The notes below the pieces were generated by a model. The model did not search any database. It saw nothing but the letters and a program-made list of their open reading frames with translations, and had not been told where the DNA came from. From assembly GCA_946554445.1 (NCBI GenBank), contig CAMNSD010000017.1:20615-84614 (forward strand): a DNA stretch of 64,000 nt, read 5' to 3'. Positions 42,079 to 48,751 of the stretch are shown piece after piece (position 1 is the stretch's first letter; every line of letters begins with the position of its first letter). Made by a program: the position numbers and the translations under genes. This stretch comes from an uncultured Lachnospiraceae bacterium. Its GTDB lineage: Bacteria; Bacillota; Clostridia; Lachnospirales; Lachnospiraceae.

Positions 42079-43341
42079 GTGAACTGGAATTGTTGTTGTT
42101 CCGGAAAGCGAAATTCAGCATTGGCAGTATTGACAGCAGCTTTATTTGTGGCAGGGCTTCTGACAGCGTGCGGACAGGAGAAAGAGCCGGAACAGGAAAG
42201 AAAAGATGTGGTTGACCAGATTGATCAACAAGGGCAGAGCATTGAGGATAGTGACTATCGAGAGGAGCAGTCCGATGCAGGAAGGCAGGATACAGACCTT
42301 GAGTCGGACAGTGGAGAGTCTTCCCAGGAAGATTTGGATCGGATCAGGGAGCAGTTTGGTGAGAACTGTATTGTAGAACAGACTTTTGAGGTGGAACTGA
42401 GTGAATATCCGGAACCGGTGTGGTTTGTTCCTAAGTCACCGTCACAGACCGGACAGGGGCTGGAAATTGAAATTATGAAAAACGGTGAAGTTCTGACAGA
42501 ATTTGATGCCTATGTGCCGGATACGCTGGCAGGTGAGAACTTTACCAGTCTGGATGCTGTATCTTTTTATGATGTGAATTTTGACAACCGTACGGATATT
42601 GTACTGATTGAGACCTATGGAAACAGCAGTTTTGCGGCAGTCTATTGTGGCGTTGGAGAGGCCGGGACGGATGGACCCAGATATTTTGTACTGTATAAGG
42701 CCTTATCAGAGGCGTTGTCTGAACAAGTCAATCCTTTGACAGTCACAGAAATCCGTAACTTCATAAGCGGCGGTAAGAGGAATGGTGAATTTGACAGCTA
42801 TCAGGAGGCTTATGAGGCTGTGGCAAGGCTCCGTGATATGGAGACAGAAGAAGAGATTTATGACATGGCCTATGACCTGATCTATGTGGATGAGGATGAT
42901 ATCCCGGAACTGGTGGTCTGTCATCAGGGGTATTCGGTCAGCCTGTATACCTATTGGGAGGGCGTTGTTTATGCGCTGATGGATGACTGGGGATACGGGG
43001 CGATGGGGAACGCAGGTTATGCTTATGTGCCCCGCCGGAATAATATAGTCAATGATAATAGTGACTATGCCGGTGCGATTTTGTACACGACCTATATGGC
43101 GGTCAGTAATCATCAGTCAGTGGATGTGGTGGCATGCATAGAGACTTATAATTTTGACGATGTGAACCAGAACGGTTATCCGGATGAGGAGGAACTGGAT
43201 TCTCTGGGAATGTATGGAGTCAGTTATATTGACGGGGTGGAGATTACCGCAGAGGAGGCAGCTTCCTACAAGGTGGGAGATTATGAGTGGATTGAAGGCA
43301 GCATGACGTTTGCAGAACTTTTGGAAGTCCTTGGCAGATAA
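42079..43341 (+). CDS. Acidic hypothetical lipoprotein
   Basis: Lipobox LLTAC; DVNFDNRTD, VDEDDIPE and DVNQNGYPD motifs resembling Ca-binding loops. Confidence 0.75.
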   Translation: MNWNCCCSGKRNSALAVLTAALFVAGLLTACGQEKEPEQERKDVVDQIDQQGQSIEDSDYREEQSDAGRQDTDLESDSGESSQEDLDRIREQFGENCIVEQTFEVELSEYPEPVWFVPKSPSQTGQGLEIEIMKNGEVLTEFDAYVPDTLAGENFTSLDAVSFYDVNFDNRTDIVLIETYGNSSFAAVYCGVGEAGTDGPRYFVLYKALSEALSEQVNPLTVTEIRNFISGGKRNGEFDSYQEAYEAVARLRDMETEEEIYDMAYDLIYVDEDDIPELVVCHQGYSVSLYTYWEGVVYALMDDWGYGAMGNAGYAYVPRRNNIVNDNSDYAGAILYTTYMAVSNHQSVDVVACIETYNFDDVNQNGYPDEEELDSLGMYGVSYIDGVEITAEEAASYKVGDYEWIEGSMTFAELLEVLGR

Positions 43342-43359
43342 AGGCCAGAAAAAATTCCG

Positions 43360-43388
43360 TTGACAACCGGAAGCGCATGTATTAAGAT
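43360..43388 (+). promoter_or_regulatory. Sigma-A promoter for leader ORF and ABC exporter
   Basis: TTGACA-17 nt-TAAGAT. Confidence 0.75.
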
Positions 43389-43428
43389 AGCAACAGTATC
43401 ATGAAAATCACGAAAGGAGGTAAGTTTT

Positions 43429-43542
43429 ATGTTTAAGATGAATTTAGATCGGAATGGCAGTACCATAACAAAATCAAACAGGAACATATTACGTGAAATT
43501 ACCTCCGTGGACAGAAGATCTGGTCGGGATATGACAAGATGA
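43429..43542 (+). CDS. Putative 37-aa leader peptide (absent from the supplied ORF track)
   Basis: AAAGGAGGT RBS then MFKMNLDRNGSTITKSNRNILREITSVDRRSGRDMTR*. Confidence 0.65.
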   Translation: MFKMNLDRNGSTITKSNRNILREITSVDRRSGRDMTR

Positions 43543-43574
43543 CTTGACAGGTCAATATATGTGCAGGATTTACA

Positions 43575-43606
43575 GGGCTATGGTAATTTTACCATAGCCC
43601 ATTTTT
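43575..43606 (+). terminator. Intrinsic terminator/attenuator between leader ORF and ABC genes
   Basis: Perfect 11-bp stem gggctatggta / taccatagccc plus attttt. Confidence 0.8.
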
Positions 43607-43681
43607 GCGCGCATCGGCAGACGAAGTCTTACGAGTCTGCTGATGTTAGGGAAAAGAAGAGACGGAGGGGAGCAAAATATT

Positions 43682-45568
43682 ATGAAAAAAATATCAAGTT
43701 ACATATGGGATTATAAATTTACCTATTTAGGGGCAATCGCATCGCTCCTGATTGCGGTAACCCTCGATATGCTGGCGCCGCGGCTGACGGCCAAAGTGGT
43801 GGACGACGTGATCGTGGGCGGCAATATGGGAGAACTGAAATTCCTGCTTCTGGGATTTCTGGGGATTGGGCTTGGACGGTGTATCTTTCAGTATTTGAAG
43901 GAATACACTTTCGACAAGAACGGTGCCCGGATTTCGGGCGATATGCGGCGGGATCTCTTCCGACATATTCAGTCCTTAAGTGCGGACTTTTTTGACCGGA
44001 CGAATACTGGAGAACTGATGGCCAGAGTGAAAGAGGACATCGACCATATCTGGGATGCAGTGGGATATGTGGGGATGCTTCTGATCGAGGTGTTTTATCA
44101 TACGGGAATCATTCTGGTCTGTATGTATATGCTTAATTGGAAGCTGGCATTGATTCCTACGGCGGCCATGCTGTTGTGTGGTTCCATCGCTGTTATCATG
44201 GAGCGGAAGCTTGGGGGCGTTTATGAGGAAATCAGCGAGGAGAATGCGGCCCTGAATACAGTGGCGGAGGAAAATCTGGCGGGTGTGCGCACGGTGAAGG
44301 CTTTTGCCAGGGAAGGGTTTGAGATTGATAAGTTCCTCTCCCACAACAAGCGATACTACGATTTAAATATGGCGCAGTCGAAGGTGTTTGTCCGCTATTA
44401 TCCGTTTTTTACTGTGGTATCGAAAGTGCTGCCGTTATTGACTATATTGGTCGGCGGAAAGTTTGTGATAAATGGAGAGATGTCTCTGGGGCAGATGACT
44501 GCGTTTGTGGAGTATTCCATGAACATTGTCTGGCCTATGGAGATGTTGGGGTGGCTGACTAACAGCTTTTCTTCGGCGGTAGCTTCCAATAAGAAGATTA
44601 AGAAAATATATGAGGAAAAACCGACCGTCAAAGAAGTGACTGATCCGGTCAGAATAGAAAAGGTACAGGGTAAGATCTGCTTTGACCATGTTTCCTTTCA
44701 CAAGGCGGACCAACATGAGATTCTGCATGATATCTCCTTTACGGTGGAAGCCGGTAAGACGCTCGGTATTATGGGTACTACAGGCGCGGGTAAGACTTCC
44801 ATCATCCAGCTGCTTCAACGTATGTATGATGCCACGGACGGCACAATTTACCTGGATGATGTGGATATCAGGCAACTGTCCCTGGAGCAGCTTCGTACCA
44901 GCGTGAGTTATGTGATGCAGGATGTGTTCCTGTTTTCGGATACCATCAATGAGAATATTAAGTTAGGAAAGAGATACTATCTGGATTTTCGGACCGTGCG
45001 AAAGGCGTCCACAGATGCCCAGGCAAGCGAGTTCATTGAGCGTATGGAAGAACAGTATGACACCGTCATCGGTGAGCGGGGCGTAGGGCTCTCCGGCGGA
45101 CAGAAACAGCGGATCAGCATTGCCAGGGCTTTGGCCAAGCGCGATCCGATTCTGGTGTTGGATGATTCCACATCCGCCCTGGATATGGAAACAGAACAGA
45201 TGATTCAGCAGACATTGCGGACGCTGGACAATACTACCAAGATTATCATTGCCCACAGGATTAGTGCGGTACGGCATGCGGATGAAATCCTGGTGCTGGA
45301 AGGCGGCAGCATCGCCGAGAGAGGCACCCACGAGGAACTGCTGGCAAAGAAGGGATTGTATTATGAGACTTATGAATCACAGTATGGGGCAGTTTCCGGG
45401 AAGGAGCCGGTGATAAATGAGCCGGAAAATCGAGCCGGACAATCTATGATTTCCGTGGAAGAACGCGTTGACTATATTAGTCAAAAAGAAAGAACAAGAA
45501 AAGAGAGAGAAGAGGCAGACAATCGACTGTCTCAGGAAGGAGGATGTAATGGCCTTCAATTCGTATAA
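43682..45568 (+). CDS. ABC exporter subunit (TMD-NBD), degenerate Walker B
   Basis: Six TMs, GTTGAGKT, LSGGQKQR, LVLDDS (Asp for catalytic Glu), IAHR; start reassigned to MKKISS. Confidence 0.93.
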   Translation: MKKISSYIWDYKFTYLGAIASLLIAVTLDMLAPRLTAKVVDDVIVGGNMGELKFLLLGFLGIGLGRCIFQYLKEYTFDKNGARISGDMRRDLFRHIQSLSADFFDRTNTGELMARVKEDIDHIWDAVGYVGMLLIEVFYHTGIILVCMYMLNWKLALIPTAAMLLCGSIAVIMERKLGGVYEEISEENAALNTVAEENLAGVRTVKAFAREGFEIDKFLSHNKRYYDLNMAQSKVFVRYYPFFTVVSKVLPLLTILVGGKFVINGEMSLGQMTAFVEYSMNIVWPMEMLGWLTNSFSSAVASNKKIKKIYEEKPTVKEVTDPVRIEKVQGKICFDHVSFHKADQHEILHDISFTVEAGKTLGIMGTTGAGKTSIIQLLQRMYDATDGTIYLDDVDIRQLSLEQLRTSVSYVMQDVFLFSDTINENIKLGKRYYLDFRTVRKASTDAQASEFIERMEEQYDTVIGERGVGLSGGQKQRISIARALAKRDPILVLDDSTSALDMETEQMIQQTLRTLDNTTKIIIAHRISAVRHADEILVLEGGSIAERGTHEELLAKKGLYYETYESQYGAVSGKEPVINEPENRAGQSMISVEERVDYISQKERTRKEREEADNRLSQEGGCNGLQFV

Positions 45569-47324
45569 AGATGATGAACGCAGCGTAGAGAGAAGTAAAA
45601 TACAGACTTTGAAGCGGCTCTTCAGTTATCTGTTTGCCTATAAGTGGCAGATTGTTTTGGTACTCATAATCATGGGATATGGGGTGGCTGTGAGCTTGAT
45701 CAATCCTCTGATTATGGAATCGGCAATAGATGACCATATTGGTCAACATGACCTGAAAGGGCTTTATCGGCTGTTGGTGATTGCACTTGTAATCAATCTG
45801 GTGTTGGTGGCCACGGTAAAGCTGCGCATGTATATTATGGCAAAGGTCTGCAACCAGATTCTTTTGACCATTCGGCAGGAATTGTACACCCATATCCAGA
45901 AACTGGATTTTCATTTTTTTGACAGCCGGCCAACGGGCAAGATTCTTTCTCGGATTATCGGGGATATCAATTCCTTGAAGGATGTGTTGTCCAATTGTGT
46001 GACCACCTTAATTCCGGATGGACTTACCGTGATTGCTGTGATTGTGATTATGATTTGCAAAAATCCCAAACTGGCTTTGGCTTCGCTGCTGACTTTACCG
46101 TTTATGGCTGTGGCGACGTGCTATATTGAAATCAAGGCTCATCCGCGCTGGCAGACCTTTCGCAAGAAGTCGGCTAATTTGAATGCCTTTATCCATGAGG
46201 ATATGGCAGGAATGCGGATTATCCAGAGCTTCCATGCACAAGGGGAGACGGAGGATACTTTTGACGAACTGCTCACAGAACATAGGCAGTCTTTCTTTGA
46301 GGCGGTGCGGCTGAGTGATGCCTTTGGCTCCGTAATCGATTTTTCCTGGGGAATCGGTTGTATTCTCCTGTATTTTACCGGGATTGTGATTCTGGGTGTG
46401 GATCAGGTATCGGTAGGCGTTTTTATTGCCTTTGCCAGTTATCTGAATATGTTCTGGCAGCCGATCCATAACATCAGTAACTTTTATAATCAGCTGGTGA
46501 CGAACATTGCGGGGGCAGAACGTATTTTTGAGATTCTGGATACGCCGTCGGCCATTGCAGATGCGGAGGAAGTTACACAGATGCCGGAGATTGTGGGGGA
46601 AGTGACCTTTTCCCATGTGGATTTTTCTTACGATGATAAGGTCAAAGTGTTGGATGACGTGAGTTTTGCAATCAAACCGGGAGAGACCATCGCTTTGGTG
46701 GGGCCCACGGGTGCCGGCAAATCCACGATCGTTAATCTCATCAGCCGTTTCTATGATGTGCAGGGAGGCACCGTGAAGATTGACGGGCATGATGTGAAAC
46801 AGGTTTCCATCGAGAGTCTGCGCCGGCAGATGGGTATTATGACGCAGGATAACTTTTTATTCTCTGGGACTATCCGGGACAATATCCGCTATGGCAGACT
46901 GGATGCCGCGGATGAGGAGATTGTGGCGGCGGCCAAAGCGGTCAATGCCCATGAATTTATCATGAAATTGGAGAAAGGGTATGATACGGAGCTATCAGAA
47001 CGCGGCGGCGGTCTGTCCGTAGGACAGAAGCAGCTTCTGGCGTTTGCCCGGACGATGGTTTCCAACCCGAAGATTCTGATTCTGGATGAAGCGACATCCA
47101 GCATCGATACGAAGACGGAACTGCTGGTACAGGACGGTATCGAAAATCTTCTGGCAGGCAGAACCTCCTTCGTCATCGCCCACAGACTGTCTACCATCCA
47201 AAAGGCCGACCGCATCTTCGTGGTAGACGACGGCAGGATCGTCGAAGAAGGCAACGCCGCCCAGCTAATGGAACAAAAAGGCGCATACTATCAACTCTAT
47301 ATGGCACAATTTAGCGCTTTCTAA
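45549..47324 (+). CDS. ABC exporter subunit (TMD-NBD), consensus Walker B
   Basis: GPTGAGKS, LSVGQKQL, ILDEA, IAHRLST; start reassigned to MAFNSY. Confidence 0.95.
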   Translation: MAFNSYKDDERSVERSKIQTLKRLFSYLFAYKWQIVLVLIIMGYGVAVSLINPLIMESAIDDHIGQHDLKGLYRLLVIALVINLVLVATVKLRMYIMAKVCNQILLTIRQELYTHIQKLDFHFFDSRPTGKILSRIIGDINSLKDVLSNCVTTLIPDGLTVIAVIVIMICKNPKLALASLLTLPFMAVATCYIEIKAHPRWQTFRKKSANLNAFIHEDMAGMRIIQSFHAQGETEDTFDELLTEHRQSFFEAVRLSDAFGSVIDFSWGIGCILLYFTGIVILGVDQVSVGVFIAFASYLNMFWQPIHNISNFYNQLVTNIAGAERIFEILDTPSAIADAEEVTQMPEIVGEVTFSHVDFSYDDKVKVLDDVSFAIKPGETIALVGPTGAGKSTIVNLISRFYDVQGGTVKIDGHDVKQVSIESLRRQMGIMTQDNFLFSGTIRDNIRYGRLDAADEEIVAAAKAVNAHEFIMKLEKGYDTELSERGGGLSVGQKQLLAFARTMVSNPKILILDEATSSIDTKTELLVQDGIENLLAGRTSFVIAHRLSTIQKADRIFVVDDGRIVEEGNAAQLMEQKGAYYQLYMAQFSAF

Positions 47325-47373
47325 AGAAAAACAAGCGCCGCAAAGCGGCATTTGTTTTTCTGAAAGCGCTAAC

Positions 47374-47564
47374 GAGCAAACGTCCGATGGAATCGGACAG
47401 AAAGCGCCGCAGGCGCGGGTTTGCGAGTTGATCCGTCCAAGACGGAGGAGCAAACGTCCGATGGAATCGGACAGAAAGCGCCGCAGGCGCGAGTTTGCGA
47501 GTTGATCCGTCAAGGACGGAAGAGCAAACGTCCGATGAAATCGGACAGAAAGCGCCGCAGGCGC
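47374..47564. repeat. Tandem array of 74-bp palindrome-rich units (about 2.6 copies)
   Basis: Units start at 47374, 47448, 47522; each has gtccgat/atcggac, gcgcc/ggcgc and tccgtc/gacgga stems. Confidence 0.95.
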
Positions 47565-47637
47565 AAACTATTTTTGGATAAGTTGTACAAATAAAACAGA
47601 CAATTTATAACAATATGCCGGTTTTATATAAAATATA

Positions 47638-47665
47638 TTGACAATTATACATACTACCTTATAAT
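47638..47665 (+). promoter_or_regulatory. Promoter of second LacI gene
   Basis: TTGACA-16 nt-TATAAT. Confidence 0.7.
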
Positions 47666-47707
47666 TTAGGTGGAGTTACTTAAAAATTAATGAGGTTGTG
47701 AATTAAA

Positions 47708-48751
47708 ATGGCTAAAGCGGTAAAAATGGCGGATATTGCCAAGGTGATGGGAGTCAGCACGGTGACAGTGTCCAAGGCATTGTCAGATCAGAAGGGTGTC
47801 AGCGAGGAACTTCGAGCCAAGATCAAGGAGAAGGCGGAGGAGATGGGCTATAAGACTGTCACCGCACTTTATAGAGAACGTACCGGAGCGAGTGTCAGCT
47901 ATACGTTCGGTGTGATTGTATCGGACCGCTTTCTGGCAAAATATGAGTCTTTTTATTGGAATCTGTATCAGGAAGTAGCGACTGCAGCCCTGCAGAAAGG
48001 GTGTTTTACCATGCTGGAAGTGCTGAAAGCGGAAGATGAGGACAATCTGGTCATGCCCAAACTGCTTCATGAGAAGAAGGCGGAGGGGCTGATTATTATC
48101 GGAAGGCTTAGCAAAGGGTATCTGGATAAGCTGCTGGAGCAGACAAATATTCCCTATGTCCTGTTGGATTTTACAGATGCCAACGGTGTATATGATGCGG
48201 TGATTTCCAACAGTTATTTCGGGATGTACAGGATGACCAATTATCTTTTTGAGATGGGACATCGGGACATTGCTTTTGTGGGAAATGTATTTTTTACGGA
48301 TTCCATAACGGATCGATATTTCGGATACGTGAAGTCTCTAAATGAGCATGGACTGGAAGTGAGAAAAGATTGGATTCTTGATGACAGGAATCAGGAGACG
48401 GGCAGGTCGGATTCGGGATTTGACTGGAAGATGCCAAAGCAAATGCCTACGGCATTTGTCTGCAACAATGATGTGGCGGCGGCCATGTTGGTAAAAGAGT
48501 TGGAACAGAGAGGCTATCAAGTGCCGAAGGATATTTCCGTGGTAGGCTATGACAACTATCAGCCCCCGGGGCTCTGCGATGTCAGGATTACCACCTATGA
48601 AGTGGACATGAAGGAAATGGCTAGGCAGACAATCAAAATCCTGATTCATAAAATTTCGGGGGAGTCCTATAAACAGGGCGTGACGATCATTGACGGCAGG
48701 ATCATCTATAAGGACAGTGTCAGAAAGATGAACCATCGTCAGGAACAATAA
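47708..48751 (+). CDS. LacI family transcriptional regulator
   Basis: HTH MADIAKVMGVSTVTVSKAL; FVCNND, VPKDISVVGYD. Confidence 0.95.
   Translation: MAKAVKMADIAKVMGVSTVTVSKALSDQKGVSEELRAKIKEKAEEMGYKTVTALYRERTGASVSYTFGVIVSDRFLAKYESFYWNLYQEVATAALQKGCFTMLEVLKAEDEDNLVMPKLLHEKKAEGLIIIGRLSKGYLDKLLEQTNIPYVLLDFTDANGVYDAVISNSYFGMYRMTNYLFEMGHRDIAFVGNVFFTDSITDRYFGYVKSLNEHGLEVRKDWILDDRNQETGRSDSGFDWKMPKQMPTAFVCNNDVAAAMLVKELEQRGYQVPKDISVVGYDNYQPPGLCDVRITTYEVDMKEMARQTIKILIHKISGESYKQGVTIIDGRIIYKDSVRKMNHRQEQ

Follow-up and report, generated by a model that had tools for sequence, protein, structure and literature searches.

Positions 43360-43606 of a 64,000-nt stretch of DNA from an uncultured Lachnospiraceae bacterium (this whole stretch is the window in what follows) probably form a ribosome-dependent transcription attenuator of the anti-antiterminator/antiterminator/terminator type, which would gate an operon that encodes a pair of ATP-binding cassette (ABC) half-transporters. 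The elements and their alternative pairings are seen directly, and translation of the leader, the timing of events and the inducer are deduced from them. An initial annotation had read the region as a leader attenuator controlling the ABC exporter pair; the features that it listed are all present in the sequence, in the list of open reading frames (ORFs) and in the promoter and terminator scans, and the conserved elements and alternative pairings described here support its overall reading. The parts of the leader are as follows.

43360-43388, + strand: sigma-70-type promoter, TTGACA (43360-43365), 17-nt spacer, TAAGAT (43383-43388), agreeing with the consensus at 10 of 12 positions
43413-43421, + strand: near-perfect Shine-Dalgarno (SD) sequence AAAGGAGGT of the upstream ORF (uORF), whose ATG is at 43429
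43413-43432, + strand: segment 1, the uORF SD AAAGGAGGT plus the start codon ATG; 5' strand of the anti-antiterminator helix
43429-43542, + strand: uORF of 37 codons ending in ...DRRSGRDMTR, which crosses segment 2 and stops 32 nt ahead of the terminator
43491-43506, + strand: segment 2, the anti-SD element ACGUGAAAUUACCUCC, uORF codons 22-26; strand shared by anti-antiterminator and antiterminator
43540-43554, + strand: weak hairpin (-3.8 kcal/mol) that holds the uORF stop codon (TGA, 43540-43542) at the apex of the antiterminator domain
43575-43606, + strand: intrinsic terminator (segments 3 and 4), perfect 11-bp stem GGGCTATGGTA/TACCATAGCCC (43575-43600) with the loop ATTT, then A and TTTTT; -18.3 kcal/mol
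43582-43592, + strand: segment 3, the terminator apex GGUAAUUUUAC, which pairs with 43493-43503

The leader promoter is the second-best promoter-like site that a promoter scan found within 42800-48000, and its motif TTGACA...GTATTAAGATAGCAA is kept in orthologous leaders; we infer a transcription start near 43395. Between this promoter and 44420 the scan found no promoter-like site on the + strand, including the spacer between terminator and first ABC gene (43607-43681). Because of this, and because the same spacer measures only about 40-60 nt in many orthologs, the exporter operon appears to lack a promoter of its own. The leader RNA (43395-43690) folds far better than shuffled sequence (z = -5.4; none of 200 shuffles was as good). 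Searches of 43000-44000 against Rfam gave no meaningful match, only chance-level ones even at E values up to 10, and four orthologous loci likewise had no Rfam leader match at the gathering score.

Relatives were collected in two directions. Of 61 genomes searched with the leader DNA, 9 gave a match, among them the window's own; these 9 belong to one genus. A leader-only pattern (SD ... TTACCTCC ... GGTRATTTTA), run on 185,579 species genomes, returned 39 loci, 35 of them in Lachnospiraceae (mostly mouse-gut metagenome-assembled genomes (MAGs) and isolates) and four in other phyla that are chance matches. In 33 of the 35 Lachnospiraceae loci the leader is followed by an ABC gene that starts MKKISSYIW..., and the other two (L019 and L040) have intron-like sequence right after the terminator. 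In the reverse search, 80 loci were picked solely for an ortholog of half-transporter 1 (chain 1; 68-94% identity); 77 of these had enough upstream DNA to be assessed, and the leader was present at 72 of the 77. Its carriers include a Suilimivivens MAG, an isolate labelled Roseburia hominis, Eisenbergiella tayi (DSM 26961, L134), Lachnospiraceae bacterium 10-1 (L130) and the mouse isolates 0.1xD8-71 and 1xD42-87 (L049, L055). The comparisons that follow use about 77 distinct orthologous leaders from Lachnospiraceae. When 36 leaders of the main clade were made into a covariance model, it matched at least 5 of 400 genera of the family, a lower bound since the filters were strict. The window's genome holds a single copy, and a loose pattern gave only unrelated matches elsewhere in it. 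The distribution thus appears narrow. With the presence of the leader at most assessable loci and the lack of an Rfam match, the initial annotation's idea of a new family stands to this extent: the family appears to be uncatalogued (no Rfam family), and the kind of control is one already known.

Two mutually exclusive helices share segment 2. The anti-antiterminator (helix 1:2) has two paired stretches: GGAGGUAA (43416-43423) with 43499-43506, and 43425-43432, AUG included, with 43491-43498. The core of segment 2, AAATTACCTCC, complements the SD of the uORF itself, GGAGGTAAT, and its nucleotides are conserved. Helix 1:2 was also returned by RNAalifold from 36 leaders. In the antiterminator (helix 2:3), 43493-43503 pairs with the terminator apex at 43582-43592, a duplex that RNAduplex extends to -14.5 kcal/mol. 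The apex GGTAATTT(T) is kept even where the terminator stem sequences differ, and the stem bases themselves covary among orthologs, with GC changed to AU in seven sequences. In the window the anti-antiterminator comes to about -19, the antiterminator duplex to -14.5 and the terminator to -18.3 kcal/mol; the medians across leaders are -17.6, -12.6 and -19.0 kcal/mol, and both sets are ranked as in classical attenuators. The initial annotation had assigned the antiterminator strand to a TACCATA within the uORF (43461-43467). The motif is present and does complement the terminator in the window, yet it is not conserved: just 2 of 77 leaders have any such complement early in the uORF, and what competes with the terminator across leaders is the anti-SD element at 43493-43503.

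Comparison of orthologous leaders, a check that the initial annotation had called for, revealed covariation in both helices. In a gapless alignment of three blocks (A2), which has 67 distinct rows, pairing stands at 90.7% for helix 1:2, with one AU-to-CG double change, and at 93.1% for helix 2:3, where 5 of the 10 pairs show double changes (28 cells). The covariation score of helix 2:3 was reached by none of 500 shuffles, and slid controls were 25-56% paired. In a scan that used no anchors, the SD block paired best with the anti-SD element in 74 of 77 leaders, and the 5' half of the terminator did so in 64 of them. Where the motif has changed, it has done so in two or three of the strands together:

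Main clade: SD flank GGAGGTAAT, anti-SD AAATTACC, terminator apex GGTAATTT
L105, L106, L109 and L111: SD flank GGAGGTCAT, anti-SD AAATGGCC, apex GGCTATTT
L125 and L134: anti-SD GAATTGCC, terminator apex GGTAATTC
L124: anti-SD AGAATTACC, terminator apex GGTGATTCT

RNAalifold also returned a TGAC...GTCR helix for the weak hairpin at the uORF stop codon, with variation on one side only.

The outcome predicted for each ribosome position was obtained by folding the nascent RNA up to 43592, where the 3' arm of the terminator has not yet been made, with a 30-nt ribosome footprint masked:

No ribosome: helix 1:2 forms (0.87), predicting termination
P site at codons 1-3: helix 2:3 forms (0.99), predicting read-through
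Ribosome at codons 4-6: mixed
Single ribosome at codons 7-19: helix 1:2 mostly re-forms (mixed at codon 17), unless a second ribosome is at the start
Ribosome at codons 21-29: segment 2 is covered and neither helix forms, predicting termination
Ribosome at codon 31: helix 2:3 forms (0.98)
Ribosome at codon 33 to the stop: helix 1:2 re-forms unless the SD is occupied

A second ribosome at the start gave helix 2:3 for most positions of the lead ribosome. A mechanism is proposed in which the switch would sense whether a ribosome occupies the SD and start codon at a time when segment 2 is uncovered. With the SD free of ribosomes, segments 1 and 2 would pair, the terminator would form and transcription would stop. 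An unhindered ribosome would be sitting on segment 2 when RNA polymerase reaches the T tract, so that the terminator would form in this case too; the long ORF would let a freely moving ribosome cover segment 2 just when the choice is made, giving a tight OFF state. Only when a ribosome, or a queue of them, is held on the SD, the start codon or the first few codons with segment 2 bare would helix 2:3 pair, preclude the terminator and allow transcription of the exporter. General slowing of translation could switch the leader ON by queueing.

The natural signal is most likely translation arrest at or just after initiation, in parallel with bmrB-bmrCD, vmlR and cplR. Lincosamides, pleuromutilins and streptogramin A cause arrest of this kind (PMC9226507, PMC10201436). 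A stricter form of the model, which we put forward tentatively and regard as possible rather than probable, is that the leader is a start-site occupancy sensor that depends on neither peptide nor frame. It would be ON only for arrest at initiation or within the first six or so codons, or when the SD is kept occupied, and OFF for stalls at codons 21-29, for stalls at codons 7-19 unless a second ribosome is at the start, and when no ribosome is present. If true, such a sensor could report a class of initiation or early-elongation inhibitors in gut commensals.

Several observations weigh against the attenuator model. Few of the compensatory changes are independent, as they come from roughly 3-5 clades. 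Cognate and non-cognate pairing barely differ (8.5 versus 8.2 of 9), a small gap that arises because most leaders share the same motif and that leaves the covariation resting on few clades. The registers of alignment A2 were set by anchor patterns of our own choosing, for which reason the anchor-free scan was added as a check, and a few leaders fit poorly, L107 having two mismatches in both helices. When the full leader was folded to equilibrium with ribosome masks, the terminator always won, and separate folds came to -43.2 kcal/mol with the terminator enforced versus -32.9 kcal/mol with the antiterminator enforced; any antitermination must therefore be kinetic, and the attenuator model, as the folding indicates, would depend on kinetics beyond equilibrium folding. 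Finally, a lone ribosome stalled at codons 7-19 is predicted to let helix 1:2 re-form, and general elongation inhibitors would therefore induce only through queueing.

The same RNA switch could also operate with its physiology reversed. Loading of the uORF in normal growth would then keep the exporter ON, the terminator would act mainly when ribosomes are scarce or initiation fails, and the leader would read free-ribosome or translation capacity, not drug stress. The folding allows this, as the antiterminator results (P = 0.99) when a single ribosome sits on the SD or start codon, and also for most lead positions when a second ribosome is at the start; fast loading is also expected from an SD that is near-perfect and invariant. 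We nevertheless consider a reversed switch unlikely. The ORF is kept open through the anti-SD element in 77 of 77 leaders, which is best explained by a moving ribosome that masks segment 2 to give a tight OFF state, and the relatives that have been studied experimentally are OFF without drug (PMC4191407, PMC9226507, PMC10201436).

What selection has preserved in the leader also bears on the attenuator model. GGAGG is invariant in all leaders, and each of the 77 distinct leaders has a near-perfect SD that is properly spaced from an ATG. The uORFs of these leaders have 27-48 codons (median 37; exactly 37 in 29 leaders), and the terminator, which begins 32 nt past the uORF stop in the window, does so 8-118 nt past it in relatives. 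None of the 77 uORFs has an in-frame stop, whereas the two alternative frames average 2.4 and 3.6 stops over the same span; the probability of a comparable ORF in shuffled sequence is about 0.12 per leader. The anti-SD core AAATTACCTCC is read in two different frames, as an EITS type in 60 leaders and as a KLPP type in 17 leaders from several clades. L064 and L066 have similar N- and C-terminal peptides and differ in frame across the core, which indicates compensated frameshifts. Because one core is read in two frames, selection acts on the open frame and the RNA pairing and not on the peptide.

An element made of RNA only, such as a riboswitch or a leader bound by a protein or tRNA, in which the ORF is incidental, would be in keeping with a core that is constrained at the RNA level and with helices that covary. 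It is nonetheless quite improbable, given the invariant, strong and properly spaced SD and a frame that stays open in 77 of 77 leaders with compensated frameshifts. Moreover, the 60-nt loop of helix 1:2, which would be the aptamer site, is poorly conserved, and Rfam returned no match even at the permissive E values used.

A nascent peptide that arrests the ribosome in a sequence-specific manner, as ErmCL and MsrDL do, and senses one drug or metabolite in the exit tunnel is a slightly poorer explanation still. The uORF peptide (MFKMNLDRNGSTITKSNRNILREITSVDRRSGRDMTR) is variable across leaders except around ...L(R/H)EITSA..., which recurs in many leaders together with an N-terminal MF, and these two stretches are what such a motif could consist of. 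However, ...L(R/H)EITSA... is the translation of the conserved nucleotides TTAC(G/A)TGAAATTACCTCCGCA, and the same nucleotides read ...KLPP... in the 17 leaders of the second type, with the remaining peptide not conserved. In the main-clade leaders examined, the codon differences within the core (CGT/CAT/TAT; GAA/AAA/GGA) all change the amino acid, and no synonymous ones were seen. The MF could have its own explanation in pairing: by eye, the ATGTT(T) start that encodes Met-Phe pairs with an AACAT upstream of the anti-SD element in two leaders (the window's own and L061), although in the minimum-free-energy fold of the window's own sequence the start codon pairs with ACGUG instead. No run of codons for a single amino acid was evident by eye in the aligned peptides, and the uORF peptide matches no Pfam or NCBIfam family. 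The uORF would thus be a ribosome track, presumably translated, and not a specific arrest peptide. The initial annotation had expected conserved C-terminal residues that would point to the inducer; with a peptide that is not conserved and a core read in two frames, there is no hope that the peptide names the inducer, and the leader is unlikely to reveal a specific exporter substrate as had been hoped.

It is very improbable that the uORF is a small-protein gene in its own right, complete with terminator, while another promoter serves the exporter: gene callers have already called the ORF (the exact 37-aa peptide is in a public protein collection, called on 81 contigs from NCBI, ENA and Logan and carrying no name), but 43607-43681 has no promoter-like site, the spacer from terminator to ABC gene is short in many orthologs, and the peptide is neither conserved nor read in one frame.

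The attenuator proposed here is best placed by comparison with known systems. It has a promoter-proximal leader with a terminator, an ORF under selection, an antiterminator that excludes the terminator and an overlapping anti-antiterminator within reach of the ribosome, all of which mark the attenuator class, and its aligned peptides have no conserved nascent-peptide arrest motif of the ErmCL, MsrDL or TnaC type. In the bmrB-bmrCD system of Bacillus subtilis, bmrB has 53 codons, and its coding region contains all three structures, namely terminator, antiterminator and anti-antiterminator (Reilman et al. 2014; PMC4191407). As in that system, a translated leader ORF and an intrinsic terminator, here predicted from sequence, would gate an ABC exporter that is a heterodimer and has a single degenerate ATP site, the BmrC-like gene comes first, and alternative terminator, antiterminator and anti-antiterminator structures can be drawn. 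In contrast to bmrB, the terminator lies past the uORF stop, and the anti-antiterminator is an SD:anti-SD helix whose 5' strand is upstream of the ORF. Drug induction is known for bmrB (PMC4191407) and is presumed here, and the likeness drawn between the two leaders is one of architecture.

The leaders of antibiotic resistance ABCF (ARE-ABCF) genes have a similar logic, which experiments have demonstrated for vmlR (PMC9226507), cplR (PMC10201436) and bmrB-bmrCD (PMC4191407). For vmlR, the anti-antiterminator/antiterminator/terminator scheme was shown experimentally, with the uORF held within the anti-antiterminator hairpin (PMC9226507); the cplR leader hides its uORF in a 5' hairpin, and an anti-SD element has been named for both cplR and lmo0919 (PMC10201436). 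As in these three leaders, a ribosome arrested at initiation would release the anti-antiterminator's 3' strand, which could then pair as an antiterminator and preclude the intrinsic terminator further downstream. Their uORFs have 3-4 codons (3 in vmlR and cplR) and end before the 3' strand of the anti-antiterminator, whereas here they have 27-48 codons and run through it. They regulate ribosome-protecting ABCF proteins, as opposed to a membrane ABC exporter, and the window's leader lacks the second hairpin that hides the SD of the structural gene in ARE-ABCF leaders.

The four-segment logic of 1:2, 2:3 and 3:4 pairing is that of Escherichia coli trpL, in which a run-on ribosome covers segment 2 to give termination and helix 1:2 forms without translation to give super-attenuation. 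Unlike in trpL, segment 1 is here the SD and start codon and not a set of control codons within the ORF, and the likely signal is general arrest and not tRNA charging. With ermC the leader would share the sensing of a drug-bound ribosome by a leader ORF through alternative RNA pairing, but ermC controls access to a downstream SD through a specific arrest peptide, whereas transcription termination would be controlled here and the peptide is not conserved. The leader thus appears to lack the defining features of both the bmrB and the ABCF-uORF families and yet to work like both, in a geometry of its own.

The work adds a comparatively well-supported leader family to the small set of ribosome-sensing attenuators over efflux and resistance genes, and places it in Lachnospiraceae of mouse and other animal guts, not in model Bacilli. 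One RNA core read in two frames, together with the compensated frameshifts, amounts to a natural experiment that separates the open frame and RNA pairing from the peptide. The leader predicts that commensals would turn on a BmrCD-like exporter under translation inhibition, which bears on microbiome responses to antibiotics, and it could offer a compact reporter of ribosome arrest.

The operon downstream of the leader consists of two overlapping genes, the start of the second lying 20 nt inside the end of the first:

43682-45568, + strand: ABC half-transporter 1, 628 aa, BmrC/TM287-like, with ABC_membrane (PF00664) and ABC_tran (PF00005) domains
45549-47324, + strand: ABC half-transporter 2, 591 aa, TM288/BmrD-like, with ABC_membrane and ABC_tran domains

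Exporters of the TM287/288, BmrCD and TmrAB type have one degenerate and one consensus ATP site in a head-to-tail dimer. Half-transporter 1 has the Walker B motif LVLDDS, with Asp in place of the catalytic Glu, and the canonical signature LSGGQ; half-transporter 2 has LILDEA with the catalytic Glu and the non-canonical signature LSVGQ. In a dimer of this type, LDDS of chain 1 would face LSVGQ of chain 2 to give one degenerate ATP site, and LDEA together with LSGGQ would form a consensus site. This arrangement replaces the reciprocal degenerate sites described in the initial annotation. The closest bacterial solved structure to half-transporter 1 is YheI/BmrC (E 7.5e-93), with TM287 also close; that to half-transporter 2 is TM_0288 (TM288; E 3e-117), and YheH/BmrD was matched as well (E 3e-105). 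Neither half-transporter reached an NCBIfam cut-off, the matches being to generic MsbA-, SmdAB- and Tet(46)-like models. The operon thus appears to encode a BmrCD/TM287-288-like heterodimeric ABC exporter, as judged from these matches and motifs. Half-transporter 1 continues beyond its nucleotide-binding domain in a charged C-terminal tail of about 55 residues (45400-45568), which varies, orthologs matching only up to residue 569-628. A terminator-like hairpin (47337-47349) follows the stop codon of half-transporter 2.

Upstream of the leader promoter, 42079-43341 encodes a 420-aa protein with a lipoprotein-like signal (...LLTAC...) for which no Pfam or NCBIfam family was matched.

The initial annotation had included a second hairpin in the device, which lies between the terminator and the first ABC gene:

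43612-43645, + strand: hairpin of CATCGGCAGAC (43612-43622) and GTCTGCTGATG (43635-43645)

It was rejected as a regulatory part, because it is absent from many orthologous leaders, where the distance from terminator apex to ABC start is only 41-60 nt, and because its arms are the two ends of a dispersed palindromic element. Contig C55 holds a 97%-identical copy of the hairpin, and units related to it, each some 115 nt long, occur on contigs C5, C55 and C27. The full element, GCGCGCATAAGCAGAGTC ... GAGTCTGCTTATG, is about 115 nt long; 43607-43646 of the window has only its two ends, joined as a short hairpin. Its copies in the window's own genome are at C5:45669-45914, C55:14069-14195 and C27:28765-28828, and in different species (L061, L022, L032, L037, L042 and L054) it is inserted in 0-2 copies directly after the leader terminator (TTTTTGCGCGC). 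It has no similarity to the 74-bp tandem units downstream of the exporter operon (47374-47564).

At L040, a group II intron (2081-2367, - strand; Rfam RF02001, 136 bits; also RF01998) separates the leader terminator from the ABC gene, and the start of L019 probably holds one as well. Class C group II introns have a habit of homing to intrinsic terminators, and the position of the L040 intron directly after the terminator fits this habit. At L087, the promoter and uORF are missing, and a terminator with a GGTGATTT apex still precedes the exporter, directly after an amylase-like gene.

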